Made by a program: the position numbers and the translations under genes
The notes under the pieces: generated by a model
What the model saw: the letters and a program-made list of their open reading frames with translations, nothing else
Told to the model about the DNA's origin: nothing
Databases searched by the model: none
Shown here: one piece after another, positions 2,745 to 11,609 of the stretch
Layout of the letters: each line of letters opens with the position of its first letter
Position numbering within the stretch: position 1 is the first letter of the stretch
Assembly: GCA_041674705.1 (NCBI GenBank)
Contig: JBAYVF010000001.1
Coordinates: 1,238-65,237, forward strand
Length of the DNA stretch: 64,000 bases
DNA from: Candidatus Omnitrophota bacterium
GTDB taxonomy: Bacteria > Omnitrophota > Omnitrophia > Omnitrophales > Aquincolibacteriaceae
Direction of reading: 5' to 3'

Positions 2745-3905
2745 ATGAAGATCCTTCATGTTTCCACTTATGCGGCGCTTCGGGACAAGGTCCGTGAAAC
2801 CCTTCTCCTCGGCCAGAGGCAGATCGAAGAAGCCAAAGTCCTCACCTACTGGAGAACCGGGCAGATTATGGATCAGCACATCCGGGACCACACTCCGGAA
2901 GGCAAAGAACGCGCCGCTTACAATACCCATGTGGTGGAAAAACTTGCCGGAGACCTCAAGATCAGCGACACGGTGCTCTATCGCTGCGTCCGTTTTGCGC
3001 AGCAGTTCAAGAAAGTGGCCGCGCGGCCACTTTCCTGGGCCCATTACCGCGCGCTGATCACGGTGCCGGATGAAAAAAAGCGTTTGATGCTGGCAGACCG
3101 GGCTTCTAAAGGGGGATGGTCTTCGCGTGACCTCGAGATCGAGGTTCGCAACCTTCTTTGGGATGAACGAGCCGAAGCCTCGGACGGCAAAGCCCCATCA
3201 CTCCTTCCCGTGCCTGTCCTGGGTCCTTTTTACACCTACAAAGTCATTACGCCGGAGAGCATCCATTCCCGCGCCACCGAGCCGCTTCTCGATGTCGGAT
3301 TTTCCGGGACGAAGAAGCTCGGGCAGTTCCAGTCCGCGCGAGCTGTCAAAGGCTCGGCGGATGGTACTTGGGACATAGGGCACAAGTGCACTTCAAAGAA
3401 ATTTCCCGCTGGAACTATTGTCAGCTCTATTAAAGATGCGAAGGGGTATTATTCGCTCCACGCCCCACGCGCCACGAACCACGTGGCCCGTGGCCCGGGA
3501 GACGTGTCCCTGCTTTATACTTACCAAGCCTACGTCACGCGCATCGTGGACGGCGACACGCTCAAACTCGAGATCGACACCGGCTTTGATGACCAGAAAC
3601 ATGAAACGATCCGGCTCCGGGGCATCGATTGCCCGGAACTTAATAAGGACTCCGCCACAAAGAAGGCGGATCCGTCCCTGAGTGGAAGAACGATTCAGGG
3701 CGGAGAAGGCCAGGCCGCCAAGCGCTTTGTCGAGCGCGAACTTGGCGCTTGCGAGTCCATTATCCTGAAATCCACCCAGTCCCAGCGAAAGGAAAAGTGG
3801 GGCCGGTATCTCGGCGACATCTTCTATGTGAATAAAGCCGGCCAACAGATCTATCTCAACAACCTCCTCCTTGAAAAGGGGTATGCAGTAAGGGTGAGGG
3901 AATAG
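2745..3905 (+). CDS. DUF1016/YhcG N-terminal domain fused to a staphylococcal-nuclease (SNase/thermonuclease) domain
   Basis: The N-terminal half has the YhcG_N pattern (LTYWRTGQIMDQHI...ERAAYNTHVVEKLAGDL...LSWAHYRALITVPD...GGWSSRDLEIEV). The C-terminal part has the SNase pattern (VTRIVDGDTLKLEI...ETIRLRGIDCPEL...KWGRYLGDIFY...LLLEKGYA). Confidence 0.7.
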   Translation: MKILHVSTYAALRDKVRETLLLGQRQIEEAKVLTYWRTGQIMDQHIRDHTPEGKERAAYNTHVVEKLAGDLKISDTVLYRCVRFAQQFKKVAARPLSWAHYRALITVPDEKKRLMLADRASKGGWSSRDLEIEVRNLLWDERAEASDGKAPSLLPVPVLGPFYTYKVITPESIHSRATEPLLDVGFSGTKKLGQFQSARAVKGSADGTWDIGHKCTSKKFPAGTIVSSIKDAKGYYSLHAPRATNHVARGPGDVSLLYTYQAYVTRIVDGDTLKLEIDTGFDDQKHETIRLRGIDCPELNKDSATKKADPSLSGRTIQGGEGQAAKRFVERELGACESIILKSTQSQRKEKWGRYLGDIFYVNKAGQQIYLNNLLLEKGYAVRVRE

Positions 3906-4212
3906 AATAAAGTGATGTGCCTGTCCTGTCGAAGCGAAGGTGACGATCCCCGGAATTCAAGCAGCCGATTTCCCCTTTAAATTTTAAAGAGCATCACACT
4001 ATTAGTCTGATGCTCTGTTAAAACGGCATCAAATTCGCTGCAAACAGCACAGGAGGGGAGGGTGCAAATTAGCACAGAAGAGATTCTACGCAAAAGCAAT
4101 ACAACTGTAGGTGTCTGCCGATGAAAGTGCCTTTTCAGCTCTTAGAGGTGTATTATCTAATCAGTCGCAACTTTACCTAATGACTACGCCATGCCATCAA
4201 TTAGGATACTTA

Positions 4213-4240
4213 TTGACATGTTGTGCAAATGTTATACAAT
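4213..4240 (+). promoter_or_regulatory. Sigma70-type promoter of the AT-rich island (TTGACA-16 nt-TACAAT)
   Basis: ttgaca at 4213-4218 and tacaat at 4235-4240, about 85 nt upstream of the ATG at 4326. Confidence 0.55.
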
Positions 4241-4250
4241 GCTCTTTGGT

Positions 4251-4300
4251 TAGACGTAGGTAGACACTGGTAGACCTAGGTAGATATAGATAGATGAAAT
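4251..4300 (+). promoter_or_regulatory. Five 10-bp-phased TAGAY direct repeats (putative operator or iteron-like array)
   Basis: tagacgtagg / tagacactgg / tagacctagg / tagatataga / tagatgaaat, starting 11 nt after the -10 box and ending 25 nt before the start codon of the HTH-containing gene. Confidence 0.6.
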
Positions 4301-4325
4301 TGAAAACTAATCAGAAAGAGTAATT

Positions 4326-5360
4326 ATGGATTCTGAAAGCAAAGTGCTTAATGTGAATGAAGCGTCAGAGTTTCTCAAAATTTCGAGGGCGATGCTTTAT
4401 AGGCTAATTAAAGACGGCCAGATAAAAACTATAAAAATCGGCGACTTAACCAAGATTGCAATCGAAGAACTCGAAAGATTTATTAATGCTCAGTCACAGC
4501 AACCTGCCATAAAGGTTAAAGGTGTTTGGTCTAGGAGTAATTTAGAAGACGCCCTCCTAGCTGTTCAAAGAGCAACGGATGAAAAGGTGGGGTTGGTAAT
4601 TATTGATTTATCTGAGGCTGTTTTTGTTACGCCCACTGGCTTGGCTATGTTGTGTAGCATTATAGATCGGACTACTTGGCGTGGAGGAAACGTTCGAATT
4701 AAAGATCCTCAGAATGAGGAATTCAAAGTTTTTTTAAAAAGCATCGGTTTTTGGGATTATTTGCACATTGCTACTTCGCCAGACATTCCCAAGAATATAG
4801 AACCAAATGTGCAGTTGAAGCGGCTTCAAAATCTTGATATCGCTTTAACAGGAAAACTAGTGGAATTCATAGAAAGCTCCATCAGCGTTTCCCCCGGAGT
4901 TTCGTATGTTTTAAGCATGGCACATAATGAATTGATTGAAAATGCTATGGTTCACAGCCAGTCACGACGAGGATGCCTTGTTTGTGCACAGAGCACACCC
5001 AAAAGCAAGCTTCTACGATTGACAGTTCTTGATGAAGGGCAGGGTATCCGTTCCTCTCTGATGGAATCTTATCCGAAAATCGAAAATGATATCGCTGCCA
5101 TCAAACTTGCCGTCCAAGAGGGTGTAGGTGCTCGCAAAACAGAAGATAGAGGATTGGGGCTTCATGAGATTTTAAAATTCGTAAAAGTGAATGATGGCGA
5201 ATTGACCATAATTTCTGGGCATGGGAAAGTTATTTTTAAAAGGGAAGAAGTTCTAGAGGAAAAATTAAAGACCAATTGGAGCGGAACCATTGTTGAAGTT
5301 CGATTAAATCAAGACAAAGAAAGTTTTTATAGGTTGTCTTCCGAAGAAAGGACTTTTTAA
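4326..5360 (+). CDS. HTH (excisionase/MerR-type) + STAS-like domain + GHKL ATPase (RsbW/SpoIIAB-like kinase) fusion protein
   Basis: HTH at aa 8-55 (LNVNEASEFLKISRAMLYRLIKDGQIKTIKIG). STAS-like segment VGLVIIDLSEAVFVTPTGLAMLCSII...FLKSIGFWDYL. GHKL N-box ELIENAMVH, G1 LDEGQGI, G2 DRGLGLHEI. Confidence 0.7.
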   Translation: MDSESKVLNVNEASEFLKISRAMLYRLIKDGQIKTIKIGDLTKIAIEELERFINAQSQQPAIKVKGVWSRSNLEDALLAVQRATDEKVGLVIIDLSEAVFVTPTGLAMLCSIIDRTTWRGGNVRIKDPQNEEFKVFLKSIGFWDYLHIATSPDIPKNIEPNVQLKRLQNLDIALTGKLVEFIESSISVSPGVSYVLSMAHNELIENAMVHSQSRRGCLVCAQSTPKSKLLRLTVLDEGQGIRSSLMESYPKIENDIAAIKLAVQEGVGARKTEDRGLGLHEILKFVKVNDGELTIISGHGKVIFKREEVLEEKLKTNWSGTIVEVRLNQDKESFYRLSSEERTF

Positions 5361-5362
5361 TC

Positions 5363-5677
5363 ATGATTAATATTAACATTAAAGATCACTATGGCAAAGA
5401 AATCGGCGGGCGAGAAGCAGGGCAAAGATTAAGACTATTTTTAGAAGATAATTGGTCTAGTACGGATAGATTCGAAGTAGATTTCGACCAAAACAAAATA
5501 GCATCCATCTCTTTTTTTGATGAGGTATTCGGGAAACTGGTTTTTAAATATGCTCCATCGGAATTGAAAACTAAATTAGTTTTAAAAAATATTGACCCAC
5601 TTGATAAGGAGCTTCTTAATTCGGTGATTAACGATAGAAGCAAGGGGAAAAACAAAACTGACGAGAATTTAAAATGA
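5363..5677 (+). CDS. Small STAS-like protein (DUF4325-type)
   Basis: 104 aa; starts 3 nt after the upstream stop codon. The pattern FEVDFDQNKIASISFFDEVFGKLV matches my recollection of the DUF4325 STAS-like family. Confidence 0.55.
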   Translation: MININIKDHYGKEIGGREAGQRLRLFLEDNWSSTDRFEVDFDQNKIASISFFDEVFGKLVFKYAPSELKTKLVLKNIDPLDKELLNSVINDRSKGKNKTDENLK

Positions 5678-5734
5678 GACAGAAGTAGAACCCTCTTGAA
5701 GGGTGATATCGTCTGGAATTTTGTATTGTTGAGG

Positions 5735-5768
5735 CGGTTTCCTTTTTGAGAGAGGGAACCGTTTTTTT
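5735..5768 (+). terminator. Possible intrinsic terminator or attenuator between island genes 2 and 3
   Basis: Bulged stem cggtttcc / ggaaccg followed by a T7 run (5762-5768). Confidence 0.35.
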
Positions 5769-5784
5769 GTTGGGGATTGAGTTT

Positions 5785-6396
5785 ATGAAAAAACAGCGAA
5801 ATCGAACGCTAGAACACAAGTTTGTTACCGACCTGAATAGAAAAAAGGGTGAATACTCAAGAGTAGAAAAACGACTCGTTAAGGAAATTCAAGAAGTTTA
5901 CCGACTAATATTTTATGGGGTCGATAAGATTAAGGCATCAAAATATCTAATGAATTGGGAGTCTTCCGCCCTTCTATCAAATGACAGGAATAATCTAATT
6001 CGGCTTGGTGTGATTAGCGAGGCAACTAAAATTGAATCATGGATAAACTGGATAGTCATTAATAATTTTATTGATGGAAGCTTATATACGTACAGACATA
6101 AAAAATACAAATTGTTTGAAAAAAAAGTGCTGGGTAAACTTAACTTAGCTTCAAAAATTGAGCTAGTACTGAAGATAACAGCAATACCGCCACACATTAA
6201 GACGACTCTGAACGAGCTGAGGAAAATACGAAATTGTATGGCGCACGAGCAATTTCCTGGGTTGGAAACAAGTGATGAGCGAGTTTTGTATCAGAGAAGA
6301 AATATATTGGACCTGAATACATTTAAAAATTTTCTGAGGGATTGCGATGTGCTGAATGATTTTTTAATGGAGAAAGCTACTGGCTTGCGCCCATAG
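5785..6396 (+). CDS. HEPN-like protein (Rx4H motif, Abi-type)
   Basis: Helical protein with LNELRKIRNCMAHEQ (R162-H167 in ORF-track numbering, nt 6229-6246), the RNxxAH form of the HEPN motif. I prefer the ATG at 5785 (GGGGA 9 nt upstream) over the track start at 5746, which overlaps the hairpin. Confidence 0.55.
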   Translation: MKKQRNRTLEHKFVTDLNRKKGEYSRVEKRLVKEIQEVYRLIFYGVDKIKASKYLMNWESSALLSNDRNNLIRLGVISEATKIESWINWIVINNFIDGSLYTYRHKKYKLFEKKVLGKLNLASKIELVLKITAIPPHIKTTLNELRKIRNCMAHEQFPGLETSDERVLYQRRNILDLNTFKNFLRDCDVLNDFLMEKATGLRP

Positions 6397-6485
6397 CTGA
6401 CTTAGAATCGTTAACAATGGTTTGCTTTCGCATTTCTTTTTAAGAGGAACCGCTTTTTTATTTTAAGATTAATAGGGGAAATTAT

Positions 6486-7427
6486 ATGTCGGCACAGTGT
6501 CCTTTCTGCAAAAAAGAACCGGATAAGATAACGCCTTTTACGAACAGGGATTGCTCAACGATTTTTTGTAAACGATGCGGAGAGTTTGCAATAACAGGCT
6601 CATTGTTATCTTCTTATGCTGACTTGGAAGAGAAAAGTCATTTGTTTTCTGGTGTTCTTCGTTGGAGAAAAGAGGGAGGTCTTAAAAGCGGAGAAATTTT
6701 AACTTCGCATACAATCAAAGAGATTTTGCAGAGCACAGAAATTCCTCAAAAAATCCCTGAAAAAATCGATAGGCTTATTTATTATATCGGTCTTAACAGC
6801 CCTACCTTCGGCGCTTCTGTCTCAATAAAGCCAGACGACGATTACTCCTTAACTTTTTCTCCTTCCGAAGACGAGCTTCACGAAATCCTTTTATTTCTGG
6901 AGAGAGATAGGCTCATCGAGCCAGCTATGGATTTTATGGGTAATGTTGCAGCCATCGAGACGCAATTATCTTACGAGGAAATGGTTCAATGCAAATTTAC
7001 AATGCAAGGGTGGAAGAGGTTTTACGAGTTGGAAAGAAAAGGCGTAGATTCAAAGCAATGTTTTGTAGCGATGAATTTTGATAATGAATTTGATTCTGCA
7101 TATCAAAAAATTAGTGAAGCTATAGAAGATTGCGGATTTAAAGCTTACAGAACGAAAGGATTTTCAATAGACGATGTCAACGACCTTATTATCGCGGGTA
7201 TTAAAGAAAGCGCTTTTGTCGTAGCCGACTTTACGGGGCAGAAGCCGGGTGTTTATTTTGAGGCTGGGTTTGCTCGTGGATTAGGGAAAAAGGTTATTTG
7301 GACATGTAGGGAGGAAGAGAAAGACAAGTTGCATTTTGATACGCGACAATTTAATCACATCTTGTGGAAAGACGTTGAAGAGTTAAAGAGCAAACTACAA
7401 ACAAGTATTCGAGCCAATATAATTTGA
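6486..7427 (+). CDS. Zinc-ribbon protein with a C-terminal nucleoside 2-deoxyribosyltransferase/TIR-like Rossmannoid domain
   Basis: N-terminal CPFC...CKRC. C-terminal CFVAMNFDNEF...AFVVADFTGQKPGVYFEAGFARGLGKKVIWTC...LHFDTRQFNHILW, matching the FVxMxF / ADxT / NVxxExGxAxGxGK / FD pattern of NDT-like (TIR-like) domains. Confidence 0.6.
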   Translation: MSAQCPFCKKEPDKITPFTNRDCSTIFCKRCGEFAITGSLLSSYADLEEKSHLFSGVLRWRKEGGLKSGEILTSHTIKEILQSTEIPQKIPEKIDRLIYYIGLNSPTFGASVSIKPDDDYSLTFSPSEDELHEILLFLERDRLIEPAMDFMGNVAAIETQLSYEEMVQCKFTMQGWKRFYELERKGVDSKQCFVAMNFDNEFDSAYQKISEAIEDCGFKAYRTKGFSIDDVNDLIIAGIKESAFVVADFTGQKPGVYFEAGFARGLGKKVIWTCREEEKDKLHFDTRQFNHILWKDVEELKSKLQTSIRANII

Positions 7428-7663
7428 AGGATATGATATCCAACCATAACCGGACGCCGTCCACGGGGAGAGGTTAGAACCGTAACGACAGCGTCAAATT
7501 GTCATATCCCTCCAGACAGCGTCCCGTAAACTGTCTCGCTATGGTACAATTCCCGTATGATTCACCCCGTTAGAGATAGGAAGCGCTTTAAAAGCGCTTC
7601 CGTGACCGGGCGTCTAATTGTTATGAAAATTTTTACTCAGTTTGATTCCAGAGGATTGATAAC

Positions 7664-8908
7664 GTGAATGTTACTGCAATCTCTAACGGGGTAAAATTTC
7701 CTCAAAATTTCTTATGGGGCGCTGCGACGGCGGCGTATCAGGTGGAGGGCGGCAACGACCGTTCCGACTGGTGGCGATGGGAAAAGAAGGCCGGGAAAGA
7801 AAATTCCGGCGCTGCATGCCGCCATTATGATCTCTATGAGCTTGACTTCGAACTCGCCAAAGGGCTCGGCCATAACGCCCACCGTCTTTCGGTTGAGTGG
7901 AGCCGCATCGAGCCCGAAGAAGGGAAGTTCTCCGAATATGCCCTCAAACATTATGCGGGGGTCATTCTGGCCTTACGGGCGCGGGATATTGAGCCGGTGG
8001 TGACACTGCACCACTTTACAAACCCGGCCTGGTTCGCGGATCTTGGGGGCTGGCGGAATAAGCGATCTGTAGATTATTTTCTTCGTTTTTCAGAGCGTGT
8101 CGTTCGAACGCTTTCCCCGTATGTTCACACCTGGATCACGATCAATGAGCCGACGATTTATTTTTCCCACGCTTATTTTCTCGGAGCATGGCCGCCTGAG
8201 GAAAAATCGATCCGGAAGGCGATGGCCGTTAAAAACCACCTGGCCGCGGCGCACATCAAGACCTATCGCATGATCCATAAAGTTTACAAAGAATTAAACC
8301 TTCAAAAACCTTTGGTGAGTTTTTCCCAACACATGCAGGCCTTTGTGCCGTGCGTGCCAAGCGCGAAAAACAAATTCGCCGCGTTTTTGCGTCATCAGTG
8401 GTTCAATCTGGGACTGATCGATCAGTTCGTGCGGCAAAAGGCCCTGGATTTTATCGGGCTCAACTATTATTCGCGGCAGTTAGTAGAGCTCAAGCGGTGG
8501 GGCCTCAGGAATCTTTTCGCGGACGTCTGTGAAAACGGGCATCATCCGGTGAAAAAAAATTCTTTGGGCTGGGATATTTATCCGGAAGGGTTGCATGACT
8601 TGCTGCTCAAACTGAAAAAATACAACCTGCCCGTTATGATCACCGAAAACGGCATTTGCACTTCGGATGACAACTTGCGATGGGAATTCATCGCCCGTCA
8701 TTTGGAGGCTATTCATCGGGCCATGGAGAAAGGTGTGCCGGTCTCGGGGTATCTTTACTGGTCGCTTCTGGATAACTTTGAATGGGACAAGGGTTTTTGC
8801 CCGCGCTTTGGTCTGATCGAAATGGATTACAAAACACAGCAGCGGACGGTCCGGGAAAGCGCCGTCAAATTCAGCGAAGTTTGCAAAACGGGGATTTTAG
8901 GACAATGA
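7664..8908 (+). CDS. Beta-glucosidase, glycoside hydrolase family 1
   Basis: FLWGAATAAYQVEGG, TLHHFTNPAWF, ITINEP (acid/base Glu), ITENG (nucleophile Glu). Confidence 0.9.
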   Translation: MNVTAISNGVKFPQNFLWGAATAAYQVEGGNDRSDWWRWEKKAGKENSGAACRHYDLYELDFELAKGLGHNAHRLSVEWSRIEPEEGKFSEYALKHYAGVILALRARDIEPVVTLHHFTNPAWFADLGGWRNKRSVDYFLRFSERVVRTLSPYVHTWITINEPTIYFSHAYFLGAWPPEEKSIRKAMAVKNHLAAAHIKTYRMIHKVYKELNLQKPLVSFSQHMQAFVPCVPSAKNKFAAFLRHQWFNLGLIDQFVRQKALDFIGLNYYSRQLVELKRWGLRNLFADVCENGHHPVKKNSLGWDIYPEGLHDLLLKLKKYNLPVMITENGICTSDDNLRWEFIARHLEAIHRAMEKGVPVSGYLYWSLLDNFEWDKGFCPRFGLIEMDYKTQQRTVRESAVKFSEVCKTGILGQ

Positions 8909-9102
8909 ACACCACGAATATCTTCGCATCGATCATCTTTGGAAGTATTGGCTTGGGTGCGTTCATTTACGGAAAAAAACAGTCGAATCTCAAGGCCCTG
9001 GTGATAGGGGTGGTCCTCATGATCTATCCCTATTTTATGCAAAATCCCATTGCGCTTTTTGCGACCGGCACGGGACTTACCGTCCTGCTCTTTATCTTTT
9101 AA
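8905..9102 (+). CDS. Small two-helix membrane protein
   Basis: The ATG overlaps the GH1 stop codon (ATGA). The 65-aa product is hydrophobic (MNTTNIFASIIFGSIGLGAFIYG...). Confidence 0.45.
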   Translation: MNTTNIFASIIFGSIGLGAFIYGKKQSNLKALVIGVVLMIYPYFMQNPIALFATGTGLTVLLFIF

Positions 9103-9111
9103 TTAGAGAGA

Positions 9112-9840
9112 ATGATAATGCCTCAGATTAAAAAAAACGCCTGGGCCTTCTTCGGAATTTTTACCTTCCTGGGGCTCTTGCTTGGGGTCGCGGCCTATTT
9201 TGAAGGGGGCCGGCCTTTTCTTCATTTTTTGTGGAGCCGGTCGTTCCTGACGCTTCTCAAGATTCTCTTGATCGCGGCGTTCGGCTTGTGGATCCTGAAA
9301 TGGATCACGAAGAGAGTCCTGCCGCAGGGATGGCTCAAATGGATTTACGGGATCCTTTTTCTTCCGATCCTGCTCTTGCCCATTTTCCGGTGTTATTTCA
9401 AAGTGCCGTACATTTTTTGCCGCGCCTGTCCTCACAAGTGCCCGTGGGGCTTCTTGCGAAGTTTCGCGTTCCCGGCCTTCCTTCTTCTGAACCTTTCGAA
9501 TAAATTTTGGTGTACCGCCCTTTGCCCTTTTGGGACATTCCAGGAATGCCAGGCGCAGATTTCCCCCAAGCGATTTAAGCTTCCGTCCTGGAGCGCGCTT
9601 TTCGCCTATGTTGTTCTGCTCCTGGTGACCGGCCTGTATCTTTTCACCTTATTTGATGTGCCCGCGGTGGAGTTTTTCGAAATGGAGCGCTACGCCTGGG
9701 TGGAAGTATCCATCGGGGTAGCGGCCTTGATCCTTCTCGCGGCTTTTTTCATCCCGAAATTCTGGTGCCGGTATTTTTGTCCCGTGGGAACGATCGACGA
9801 GGTGATTTCGAGTTTTCGCCGCTCTAAATCACCCCTATAA
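9112..9840 (+). CDS. Membrane-bound 4Fe-4S binding protein (NapH/MauN-like)
   Basis: Several TM helices plus cysteine clusters CRACPHKCPWG, CTALCPFGTFQEC and FWCRYFCPVGT. Confidence 0.65.
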   Translation: MIMPQIKKNAWAFFGIFTFLGLLLGVAAYFEGGRPFLHFLWSRSFLTLLKILLIAAFGLWILKWITKRVLPQGWLKWIYGILFLPILLLPIFRCYFKVPYIFCRACPHKCPWGFLRSFAFPAFLLLNLSNKFWCTALCPFGTFQECQAQISPKRFKLPSWSALFAYVVLLLVTGLYLFTLFDVPAVEFFEMERYAWVEVSIGVAALILLAAFFIPKFWCRYFCPVGTIDEVISSFRRSKSPL

Positions 9841-9895
9841 AGAGGCTGTTTAATAGCTCGTATTTTGAGCCGATCTGTTCTATAATACGCACATC

Positions 9896-11152
9896 ATGCC
9901 TCATACAACGCCCTCTTTAGCACAGCCAACGCCGGCAAGTTTCTATGGATTGGGGATCGCCCCGCATATCCTGGAAACCCTTACAAGAATGAAGTTCCAG
10001 ACCCCCACGCCTATTCAGCAGAAGGCCATTCCGCTGGCCGTAGCAGGGCAGGATGTGATCGGGGTGGCGCAGACGGGGACCGGGAAGACCCTGGCATTCG
10101 GGATCCCGATGGTCCAGCGCCTGACCCAGACCAAAGGCCGTGGGCTGATCCTTATCCCGACCCGGGAACTCGCCTATCAGGTCCATCAAAGCCTTCATAA
10201 ACTTGACCCCAAGATCAAATTCGCGATCCTGATCGGCGGCGCTTCCATGCACAACCAGATCCAGGAGCTTCGCCAGCATCCTCGCATTATCATCGCCACG
10301 CCGGGCCGGTTGATCGATCATATGGAACAACGCTATGTTTTTCTGAGCGAAATCAGCATCCTCGTGCTGGATGAAGCCGACCGGATGCTTGATATGGGGT
10401 TCGCGCCCCAGATCCAGAAGATCCTTCGTTCGGTTCCCAAGGAACGGCAGACGATGCTTTTTTCGGCGACGATGCCCGATACCATTATGAAGATCGCGGC
10501 ATCCCAGATGAAATTGCCGGTTCATATCGAGATCGCGAAATCCGGGACCGTGGCGGAGAAGATCACCCAGGAAGTTTTTGTCGTGAAGAAAGAAGCGAAA
10601 AGGGATCTTCTGAAGAAGGTTCTCGCGCAATATCACGGAACGATCCTTATTTTCTCAAGGACCAAGATCGGAGCCTATAAGATCACCCGCGCGATCCGTG
10701 AAATGGGGCACAATGCCGCCGAGATCCACGCCGACCGTTCGCTTTCGCAAAGGCGGGAGGCGCTCGAGGGGTTTAAATCAGGGAAATATCGCATTCTCGT
10801 GGCGACTGATATTGCAGCGCGCGGCATAGATGTGAAACACATCGAACTCGTGCTGAACTATGATCTTCCGGATGATTCCGAGAATTTCATCCACCGGATC
10901 GGCCGTACGGGTCGCATCGGGGACAAAGGGCACGCGATCTCATTCGCGACGCCGGAGCAGGGCACCGACGTTAAAGATATCGAAAAGGTCATGCGTATGG
11001 CGCTTCCCGTTTCCGAACATCCCGAAATGAAACTCGAAAATTTTATCGAACACAAGCCCGTCAAGGTCGCGTCTTTCGGCGGCCGGCGCTTTGGCCGGGG
11101 GGGCCGCTCCCGCGGCTACATCGCCCCTGCCTTCAGAAAGTCTTCTCGCTGA
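9896..11152 (+). CDS. DEAD-box ATP-dependent RNA helicase
   Basis: Q-motif TPIQ, Walker A AQTGTGKT, PTRELA, DEAD (VLDEADRML), SAT, HRIGRTGR, RG-rich tail. Confidence 0.92.
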   Translation: MPHTTPSLAQPTPASFYGLGIAPHILETLTRMKFQTPTPIQQKAIPLAVAGQDVIGVAQTGTGKTLAFGIPMVQRLTQTKGRGLILIPTRELAYQVHQSLHKLDPKIKFAILIGGASMHNQIQELRQHPRIIIATPGRLIDHMEQRYVFLSEISILVLDEADRMLDMGFAPQIQKILRSVPKERQTMLFSATMPDTIMKIAASQMKLPVHIEIAKSGTVAEKITQEVFVVKKEAKRDLLKKVLAQYHGTILIFSRTKIGAYKITRAIREMGHNAAEIHADRSLSQRREALEGFKSGKYRILVATDIAARGIDVKHIELVLNYDLPDDSENFIHRIGRTGRIGDKGHAISFATPEQGTDVKDIEKVMRMALPVSEHPEMKLENFIEHKPVKVASFGGRRFGRGGRSRGYIAPAFRKSSR

Positions 11153-11177
11153 CCCTTCCATTCTCAGGGGATCCCTC

Positions 11178-11609
11178 GTGCGACTATGGAGCTTGCATCC
11201 CGGATATCTGGACTCGCAGGGCCTTGTAGCGCTCTGGCGTGAAGCGCTCCTGGCGCAGAAGGTCCTGACGGGGAAGACCCGCGGCTATAAAAACCATCCT
11301 CAGCTTGAACGCTTTAAAGAGTATGTTCATCCCTCCCAAGCTATCGCAGCCTATTTATTCTCAATTTGGGAAGAAGCGTGTCGCCGGGGATACCGTTTTG
11401 ACAGAGCGAAGATCGGAAGCCAAAGAACGGGACGGAGGATCGCGGTGGCAAAGGGACAACTTCGTTATGAATTCGAATGGCTTTGCTCGAAATTAAAAAA
11501 ACGCTCTCCCAAACAATACCGCAAGATCGCCTCTGTTAAAAAGATCCGGCCGCATCCTCTTTTCAGGCCGGTTTCCGGGCCGGTGGCGGATTGGGAACGG
11601 GTCCAATAG
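11178..11609 (+). CDS. Pyrimidine dimer DNA glycosylase / endonuclease V family protein
   Basis: RLWSLHPGYLDSQGLVALWREALLAQKVL...GYKNHPQLERF matches the bacterial Pyr_excise family. I prefer the in-frame GTG at 11178; the track start at 11091 overlaps the helicase gene. Confidence 0.65.
   Translation: MRLWSLHPGYLDSQGLVALWREALLAQKVLTGKTRGYKNHPQLERFKEYVHPSQAIAAYLFSIWEEACRRGYRFDRAKIGSQRTGRRIAVAKGQLRYEFEWLCSKLKKRSPKQYRKIASVKKIRPHPLFRPVSGPVADWERVQ

Follow-up and report, generated by a model that had tools for sequence, protein, structure and literature searches.

A putative solitary HEPN ribonuclease from a Candidatus Omnitrophota genome belongs to an unnamed family and resembles HepS in organisation

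HEPN domains consist of two alpha-hairpins that form a four-helix up-down bundle, and an insert separates helices 2 and 3. The Rx4-6H motif lies where core helix 3 ends and the loop to helix 4 begins; its conserved R is immediately followed by a polar residue (N, D or H), and helix 2 carries a conserved acidic residue (PMC3710099). Among the described proteins, Abi2, AbiD and AbiF are solitary HEPN proteins with a conserved Rx4-6H and act as single-gene abortive-infection determinants in variable defence regions, and DUF4145 proteins occur independently of minimal nucleotidyltransferase (MNT) partners and are often fused to a restriction endonuclease, a helicase or other modules (PMC3710099). 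The closest described system in organisation is HepS (PDB 9oij), a HEPN Solo defence element from the Gifsy-1 prophage of Salmonella Typhimurium, which is a single-domain protein of ~190 amino acids (aa) with the motif R100-N101-x3-H105 and no partner genes (PMC13043305). HepS assembles into a tetramer that inhibits itself until a siphophage tail-tip protein opens it, whereupon it cleaves the anticodon loops of tRNA, and its residue K71 was placed on the tRNA by a docking model (PMC13043305). The wild-type HepS gene, carried by itself behind its native promoter, was found not to be toxic. Here we describe a 203-aa protein encoded in a 64,000-nucleotide (nt) stretch of a Candidatus Omnitrophota genome (contig JBAYVF010000001.1, positions 1,238 to 65,237 of the forward strand), which is referred to below as the window. 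We favour, with moderate confidence, the reading that this protein is a solitary HEPN ribonuclease (RNase) of genetic conflict or defence, nearest to HepS in organisation. The family to which it belongs is unnamed and new; solitary HEPN RNases as such are already a known kind. The gene and the features of its product that carry this reading are:

5785..6396, + strand: coding sequence of the solitary HEPN-like protein, 203 aa, stop codon included, from the listing of open reading frames (ORFs)
5953..6381, + strand: predicted HEPN core, residues 57-199, from the AlphaFold2 secondary structure and the conservation map
6034..6036, + strand: codon of E84, the acidic position of the long helix before the insert (D/E 86%, N 11%)
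6154..6156, + strand: codon of K124, the family's most conserved residue (95/96 sequences), in the insert helix
6229..6246, + strand: predicted catalytic motif R149-N150-C-M-A-H154 (Rx4H with the polar N after R), from the sequence and alignment A3

The original prediction, made from the letters of the window, had placed an R-N-C-M-A-H string at nt 6229-6246, and both the ORF and the motif are found exactly there, with the codons CGA AAT TGT ATG GCG CAC in frame with the ATG at 5785. The residue numbers given with it, R162 and H167, had been counted from an upstream TTG at 5746 and need correction, as the same residues are R149 and H154 from the preferred ATG. It had also cautioned that the call, based on a single short motif and on predicted helical character, could be coincidental. 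For the motif alone this caution was well placed: the protein is rich in arginine, Rx4-6H arises in 62% of 20,000 shuffles of its sequence, a second and meaningless match to Rx4-6H lies at residues 5-11, and even the stricter RNx3H arises in 2.4% of shuffles. By itself, therefore, the motif does not stand above chance, and the signal comes from its conservation among homologues, which is family-wide and gives the motif its meaning.

A word-indexed search of 5.8 billion proteins returned, apart from the window protein, only two relatives, at 76% and 53% identity, and RN.MAH is kept in each of the three; such a search with the family profile returned only 5 proteins. An exhaustive HMMER search with a three-sequence profile against 1.84 billion cluster representatives detected 182 of them at E <= 1e-3, including 38 with E <= 1e-10; their length is almost always 170-205 aa, and every family member bearing a name is called 'hypothetical protein'. 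In a sample of 152 proteins, consisting of the window protein, its 76%-identical homologue P0002 and the 150 best profile-search matches, 140 carry RNxxxH, positioned near residue 130 in a length of ~180; two of the 12 proteins lacking it (P0018 and P0020) are fragments that do not reach the motif. Alignment A3 comprises 96 full-length members with a mean column identity of 22%, and its near-invariant columns are K124 (99%), R149 (98%), N150 (97%) and H154 (98%). The position of D186 is acidic in 94% of the same alignment, and the family consensus around the motif reads L-R-N-[AG]-[LIVM]-A-H-S-F-F-P-E-N. Poor conservation among homologues had been named beforehand as grounds for giving up the call; what was found is a motif that is near-invariant across the family of 182 representatives, and its persistence at this level of divergence argues against coincidence. 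An N-terminal helix (window residues ~24-51) is conserved as well, with the consensus LT.KQ..L..EI..I. In PDB sequence searches it weakly matches designed and GCN4-derived coiled-coil peptides (IQN17 and IQN22, E ~0.15-0.6; positions 4-36 of the A3 and A4 profiles); the helix is coiled-coil-like and, speculatively, could serve in oligomerisation or sensing.

An AlphaFold2 model built on the 96-sequence alignment (predicted local distance difference test score, pLDDT, 85.6; predicted template modelling score, pTM, 0.81) replaced an earlier three-sequence model that was too poor to use (pLDDT 58.6). The helices of this confident model are 26-42, 45-51, 57-95, 106-114, 121-131, 136-154 and 177-199, and a short beta hairpin separates the final two. 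Read against the HEPN scheme, helix 57-95, which carries E84, corresponds to helix 2; residues 106-131, with helices 106-114 and 121-131 and with K124 in the second of these, correspond to the insert; helix 136-154 is the motif helix (core helix 3); and helix 177-199, with D186, is helix 4. In the secondary-structure string the motif helix ends at H154 and is followed by a loop and the last helix, which matches the motif position given in the HEPN survey (PMC3710099) and is a second point against a coincidental motif. The polar residue after R is supplied by N150, and the helix-2 acidic residue fits through position 84; the frequent Ex3[KR] form is absent. Compared with the PDB using Foldseek, the model received its highest probabilities from MtlR (6kcr, 0.85-0.92), Csm6 (6tug, 0.66), HepS (9oij, 0.44, over 95 columns at 23% identity) and YggD (3c8g, 0.38), all of which are HEPN folds. 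The fold had likewise been singled out in advance as a point on which the call could fail; here the helix order, the motif position and the top probabilities agree with HEPN, while none of the Foldseek matches is significant.

The profile libraries point the same way. For the window protein itself, Pfam returned DUF4145 at 22.9 bits (gathering threshold 23.1) and HEPN_Cthe2314, PADLOC returned the Cas13b HEPN2 region and PD-T4-2_B, and NCBIfam returned Cas13b. When the 96 members of A3 were scanned with Pfam at E <= 0.01, matches were obtained to Cthe2314 (13 members), RiboL-PSP (8, best E 6.2e-6), DUF4145 (7), LA2681 (3) and DUF3644 (3), and once each to Swt1, Apea, pEK499_p136 and Abi_2 (E = 0.008); no non-HEPN Pfam family appeared among them. 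Over the same members NCBIfam gave Cas13b, Csm6 and Csx1 only, and PADLOC gave CARF2--CARF_HEPN in 19 members along with 22 other families, nearly all of them Csx1, Csm6, Cas13, ApeA or DUF3644 models. These are dozens of independent weak matches from three libraries, almost exclusively to HEPN models, and they too argue against a chance motif. In PHROGs, phrog_5483, a phage family with no assigned function, was matched weakly by 16 of the 96 members (best E 1.2e-5) and one member matches PHROG 2158, 'abortive infection resistance protein', so distant phage-encoded relatives, in phrog_5483, may exist. The original prediction had likened the motif context to Abi2/AbiD-like and DUF4145-like domains; of the two, the Abi2 part is weak, resting on that single member, and DUF4145-like is the better label, as the score lies just under the threshold. 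From the motif, its position in the model and the consistency of these weak matches, the window protein very probably belongs to the HEPN superfamily.

The genomic distribution was examined in one genome per species (185,579 species) using a conserved pattern taken from a 16-sequence sub-alignment. This yielded 52 loci, in 42 of which the gene could be called (L006-L051), spread over Acidobacteriota, Planctomycetota, Alpha-, Beta- and Gammaproteobacteria, Chloroflexota, Bacteroidota, Verrucomicrobiota, Gemmatimonadota and a lineage of the Candidate Phyla Radiation (CPR); the distribution of the family is patchy and covers at least nine phyla. The G+C content (GC) of the family gene was below that of its flanks in 42/42 loci (median -10 points, Wilcoxon p = 1.6e-8; up to -32 points in L029), and its genomic position differs between loci. 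The uniformly low GC is a sign of foreign origin, and the gene is therefore an accessory, horizontally acquired one. Conflict genes were sighted scattered around the loci, as raw sightings amid housekeeping genes: AbiE, MADS, Lamassu LmuA, SduA, and PDC and HEC candidates, together with restriction enzymes, type VI secretion system (T6SS) immunity proteins and transposases.

Several results weigh against the reading of the protein as a HEPN RNase of conflict or defence, and they lend themselves to different rival explanations. First, none of the HEPN-model matches in Pfam, NCBIfam or PADLOC reaches its curated cut-off, and the family is for this reason not covered by these libraries. In hhalign comparisons of the family profile with a shallow RiboL-PSP alignment (the protein at L001, the locus of P0002, alone or 5 sequences), the motif helices line up at a probability of < 1%; searches of all PDB chain sequences with the window protein and with profiles A3 and A4 gave nothing relevant; and all Foldseek E-values against the PDB exceed 0.1, with TM-scores of 0.3-0.45. 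Absence of any match above threshold, and structure and profile-profile comparisons that fall short of significance, are what a coincidental motif in a non-HEPN helical protein would give, as would the high frequency of Rx4-6H among shuffles. Considering the near-invariant motif, the nearly pure HEPN content of the weak matches, the placement of the motif at a helix end before a loop and last helix, and the HEPN identity of every top structural match, we regard this explanation as very improbable.

Second, the best structural match, MtlR, is a non-catalytic HEPN protein, and the nearest out-group relatives of the family (P0004, P0006 and P0008; E 1e-29 to 1e-21) have R, N and H replaced, for example by LNKSTAR in P0004, which means that the scaffold can persist without catalysis. 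Judging by these substitutions, the clade consists of naturally inactivated HEPN-like proteins. The window protein could by the same token be a HEPN-fold binder of RNA or another ligand that does not cleave, a regulator or adaptor like MtlR and YggD, both of which are among the best Foldseek probabilities; the maintenance of an inactivated clade next to the family fits such a role. The residues themselves speak otherwise: the motif is only ~60% conserved in MtlR (PMC3710099), whereas here R, N and H are 97-98% conserved in very divergent members, a degree of conservation that the HEPN survey reads as an active RNase (PMC3710099), and all three residues are retained in the window protein and its two close homologues. 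We consider a non-catalytic binder improbable, and the window protein is probably an active RNase.

Third, many neighbours of the family gene are ordinary housekeeping genes, such as those for RNase E/G, leucyl-tRNA synthetase, a SpoU methylase and a GTPase, and tblastn against phage and plasmid collections found no homologue. Both observations would suit a host housekeeping or stress-related RNA-processing enzyme with no part in conflict or defence. Such an enzyme would sit poorly with a patchy spread (52 loci among all the species genomes scanned, by one conserved pattern), with 1-15 members per 90% cluster, with the lower GC and variable position of the gene at the callable loci, and with the place of the window gene in a 3.5-kb low-GC island beside other conflict-type genes. 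A housekeeping role is as improbable as a non-catalytic one, and we lean slightly towards a conflict or defence role for the window gene.

A further rival keeps the HEPN RNase and gives it a partner: the protein would be the toxin half of a toxin-antitoxin pair, and its antitoxin would have escaped notice as a tiny ORF, as an antisense or leader transcript, or as a protein evolving so fast that its versions at different loci share no recognisable similarity. This partner, and not auto-inhibition, would then hold the RNase in check. HEPN toxins frequently come with an antitoxin, MNT being one example (PMC3710099), and at ~10 of the 42 loci the stop codon of the family gene is abutted or overlapped by an ORF of 115-222 aa on its downstream side. 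These ORFs are mutually unrelated by BLASTP, phmmer and Pfam, though, and several look spurious and lie in high-GC DNA. No neighbour family recurs in the 42 loci by the same three methods; a conserved partner or antitoxin was rejected after all-against-all BLASTP, phmmer, Pfam and PADLOC scans of the neighbours; and no nucleotidyltransferase was found among the 41 upstream and 41 downstream neighbours or in the window. An adjacent inactive HEPN paralogue was rejected too, as the family profile finds no second copy nearby in the 42 loci except for a 65-aa fragment in L050. A nucleotidyltransferase does occur beside the motif-less P0004, whose gene is directly followed by a Pol-beta nucleotidyltransferase in a layout that recalls HEPN-MNT modules; this locus (L058, 8001-8534 and 8609-9037) is a defence island, in which the pair comes after OLD/TOPRIM, UvrD, type I HsdR and two Endonuc_Holl genes. 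In two Acidobacteriota loci (L032 6604-7137 and L035 6604-7137) the ORF directly downstream carries classical-HEPN strings (GHHALEMYLKSAL ... GHDLVKLAKRL) and could be a second, unrelated HEPN beside the family gene.

The missed-antitoxin explanation can also draw on a conserved structured element that lies directly upstream of the gene in both the window and L001. The features concerned are:

5690..5768, + strand: conserved upstream element, with a small hairpin (ACCCT..AGGGT), a conserved spacer (CGTCTGGAATTTTG...) and a terminator-like hairpin with a T-run (5731-5768)
6445..6459, + strand: partial copy (AGGAACCGCTTTTTT), downstream of the gene, of the 15-nt end of that element
L001, 6150-6208 and 6886-6900: counterparts of the element and of the downstream repeat

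The 15-nt end of the element, GGGAACCGYTTTTTT, thereby forms direct repeats that flank the gene, 691 nt apart in the window and 692 nt apart in L001, and DNA similarity between the two loci stops at the downstream copy. The element precedes the gene in both despite their differing upstream genes, and its first hairpin shows a compensatory change (ACCCT/AGGGT versus GCCCT/AGGGC). The same two-hairpin element lies ahead of an unrelated gene in L063 (11200-11275), at a drop in GC; a terminator-like site of any kind is found upstream in 3 of the 42 family loci, and the element is missing from most of them; Rfam gave no match over window positions 3800-7800. A gene-specific regulatory leader or RNA antitoxin was rejected on these grounds. 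Because the element precedes the unrelated L063 gene and is absent from most family loci, it is better described as portable than as a regulator of this gene: apparently these genomes carry it as a movable intergenic or terminator sequence, and it could be a portable terminator or cassette junction. With neither a protein nor an RNA candidate shared across the loci, a missed antitoxin is unlikely, if somewhat less so than the non-catalytic and housekeeping alternatives.

For a solitary HEPN RNase we propose the following mechanism. The R-N-x3-H motifs of two protomers would come together as a composite RNase site that needs no metal, as for HEPN RNases in general and HepS (PMC3710099, PMC13043305). 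This site would cut RNA, most likely tRNA anticodon loops or mRNA, leaving 2',3'-cyclic phosphate ends. A resting oligomer would keep the enzyme inactive; such auto-inhibition is probable because there is no antitoxin. An infection or stress cue would then activate the enzyme and translation would stop, so that the protein would serve as an abortive-infection or conflict toxin.

The gene itself is real and under purifying selection, with a ratio of nonsynonymous to synonymous substitution rates (dN/dS) of 0.13 between the window gene and its L001 homologue. Its product is identical to P0001 (MFA7254473.1), a 203-aa "hypothetical protein" of a Candidatus Omnitrophota metagenome-assembled genome. 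The + strand ORF ends at 6396, and the 203 aa are counted from the ATG at 5785, which is also the start in both MFA7254473.1 and P0002. The TTG at 5746 was rejected as a start, since it is enclosed by the terminator-like hairpin at 5731-5765 and the homologues begin at the ATG position; for these reasons the ATG is preferred.

The original prediction had set the gene on an island, and this holds: it lies within the 3.5-kb low-GC island at ~4000-7500 (GC 0.385, against 0.526 in the rest of the window), together with other conflict-type genes, and has a GC of 0.36 itself. No convincing flanking repeats were found at the island edges and no tRNA gene lies close by, and boundaries marked by repeats were dropped as an idea. 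The other genes of the island are:

4326-5360, upstream: HTH_17-STAS-HATPase_c protein, 344 aa, with an excisionase-type HTH_17 and with STAS-like and HATPase_c regions
5363-5677, upstream: DUF4325 (STAS-like) protein, 104 aa
6486-7427, downstream: zinc-ribbon protein, 313 aa, with N-terminal CxxC...CxxC and a TIR-like or nucleoside 2-deoxyribosyltransferase-like C-terminus

The upstream pair looks like an ATPase and STAS partner-switching or conflict module and is unlinked to the HEPN gene at other family loci; the products of both genes match the N-terminal part of the PADLOC DrmA model. The zinc-ribbon protein, which matches the PADLOC 'Effector TIR' model at 3.6e-8 and Pfam Nuc_deoxyrib_tr below threshold, probably represents a further, independent effector gene there. 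Adjoining the low-GC island but not part of it, in DNA of host-like GC, positions 2745-3905 encode a 386-aa protein with a DUF1016 N-terminal domain and a staphylococcal-nuclease domain, which matches many PADLOC PDC-S02 candidate-defence models.

L001 is another defence-type island with different content. Upstream of its family gene is an unrelated pair, a 382-aa protein (4351-5499) with a weak HTH_3 match and a HELGH string, presumably akin to ImmA/IrrE-type peptidases, and a 181-aa partner; on comparison, this pair and the pair upstream of the window gene showed no relationship. Downstream are a RiboL-PSP HEPN protein (7049-7741) and a 1059-aa PLD-SNF2 helicase (8194-11373).

The analysis provides a label, and a prediction open to experiment, for proteins so far called 'hypothetical' and outside Pfam, NCBIfam and PADLOC, which number 182 representatives and span at least nine phyla; catalysis is predicted to involve R149, N150 and H154, and K124, E84 and D186 are further candidates. 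Tentatively, one may go further and see here an undescribed, widespread family of single-gene abortive-infection nucleases, a second 'solo HEPN' lineage that would be independent of HepS and would have its typical hosts among bacteria of soil and peat, such as Acidobacteriota, Planctomycetota, Proteobacteria and Omnitrophota, in which the N-terminal sensor or oligomerisation helix and the invariant lysine might set trigger and substrate specificity and whose inactivated sister clade (P0004, P0006 and P0008) might have been re-used non-catalytically. If the family is indeed a solo HEPN defence nuclease, the class whose mode of activation has just been elucidated for HepS, ApeA and DARNA would gain an independent lineage, one from phyla that studies of defence systems have scarcely covered. 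No new principle is involved; the value lies in the annotation and in a compact new enzyme to characterise, which is of modest interest and would not surprise a specialist.

Set beside the known systems, the family resembles HEPN-MNT modules (type II/VII toxin-antitoxin systems pairing DUF86/HEPN-T with a minimal nucleotidyltransferase) in that the HEPN protein is small, carries Rx4H and is a predicted toxic RNase; it differs in having no adjacent nucleotidyltransferase, with the motif-less P0004 as the exception, and in showing no PF05168 or DUF86 match among the 96 members. The comparison with Abi2 is an analogy of function and not one of membership, as the window protein has no match to Abi_2 (PF07751) at E <= 1 and only the single member noted above reaches E = 0.01. 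Csm6, Csx1 and Cas13b are the commonest weak matches in PADLOC and NCBIfam, all of them on the HEPN part that bears R-N-x3-H. The present proteins, however, have ~180-200 aa, no CARF domain and no cas genes nearby, and their scores are far under the cut-offs (15.8 bits against 150 for Cas13b); activation by cyclic oligoadenylate or CRISPR RNA (crRNA) is for these reasons not expected.

DUF4145 (PF13643) is the window protein's best Pfam match, with residues 108-158 falling on profile positions 23-74 of 88, and the DUF4145-like clade includes MtlR/YggD, whose structures score best in Foldseek. The score is under the threshold, though, and few members match at E <= 0.01, and the present family is stand-alone and has its own conserved N-terminal helix, its K124 and an FFPEN segment after the motif. 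HepS differs in that profiles A3 and A4, searched against PDB chains, miss 9oij even at E <= 10, so that the weak Foldseek match is the sole link; in the position of the motif, which is at ~residue 130-150 here and at 100 in HepS because of the longer N-terminal part of the present family; and in its homologues, which are often prophage-borne and range from Enterobacteriaceae to Bacillaceae, whereas the present family was found in chromosomes (of Acidobacteriota, Planctomycetota, Proteobacteria, Chloroflexota, Omnitrophota and others) and not in the phage collection. What the two have in common is organisation rather than membership: a similar size (~190 versus 203 aa), R-N-x3-H, and a stand-alone single HEPN domain without conserved partners. 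Both also have a lysine upstream of the motif (K71 in HepS, K124 here), an equivalence that is a loose analogy only, and by this analogy K124 may contact the substrate or belong to the active site.

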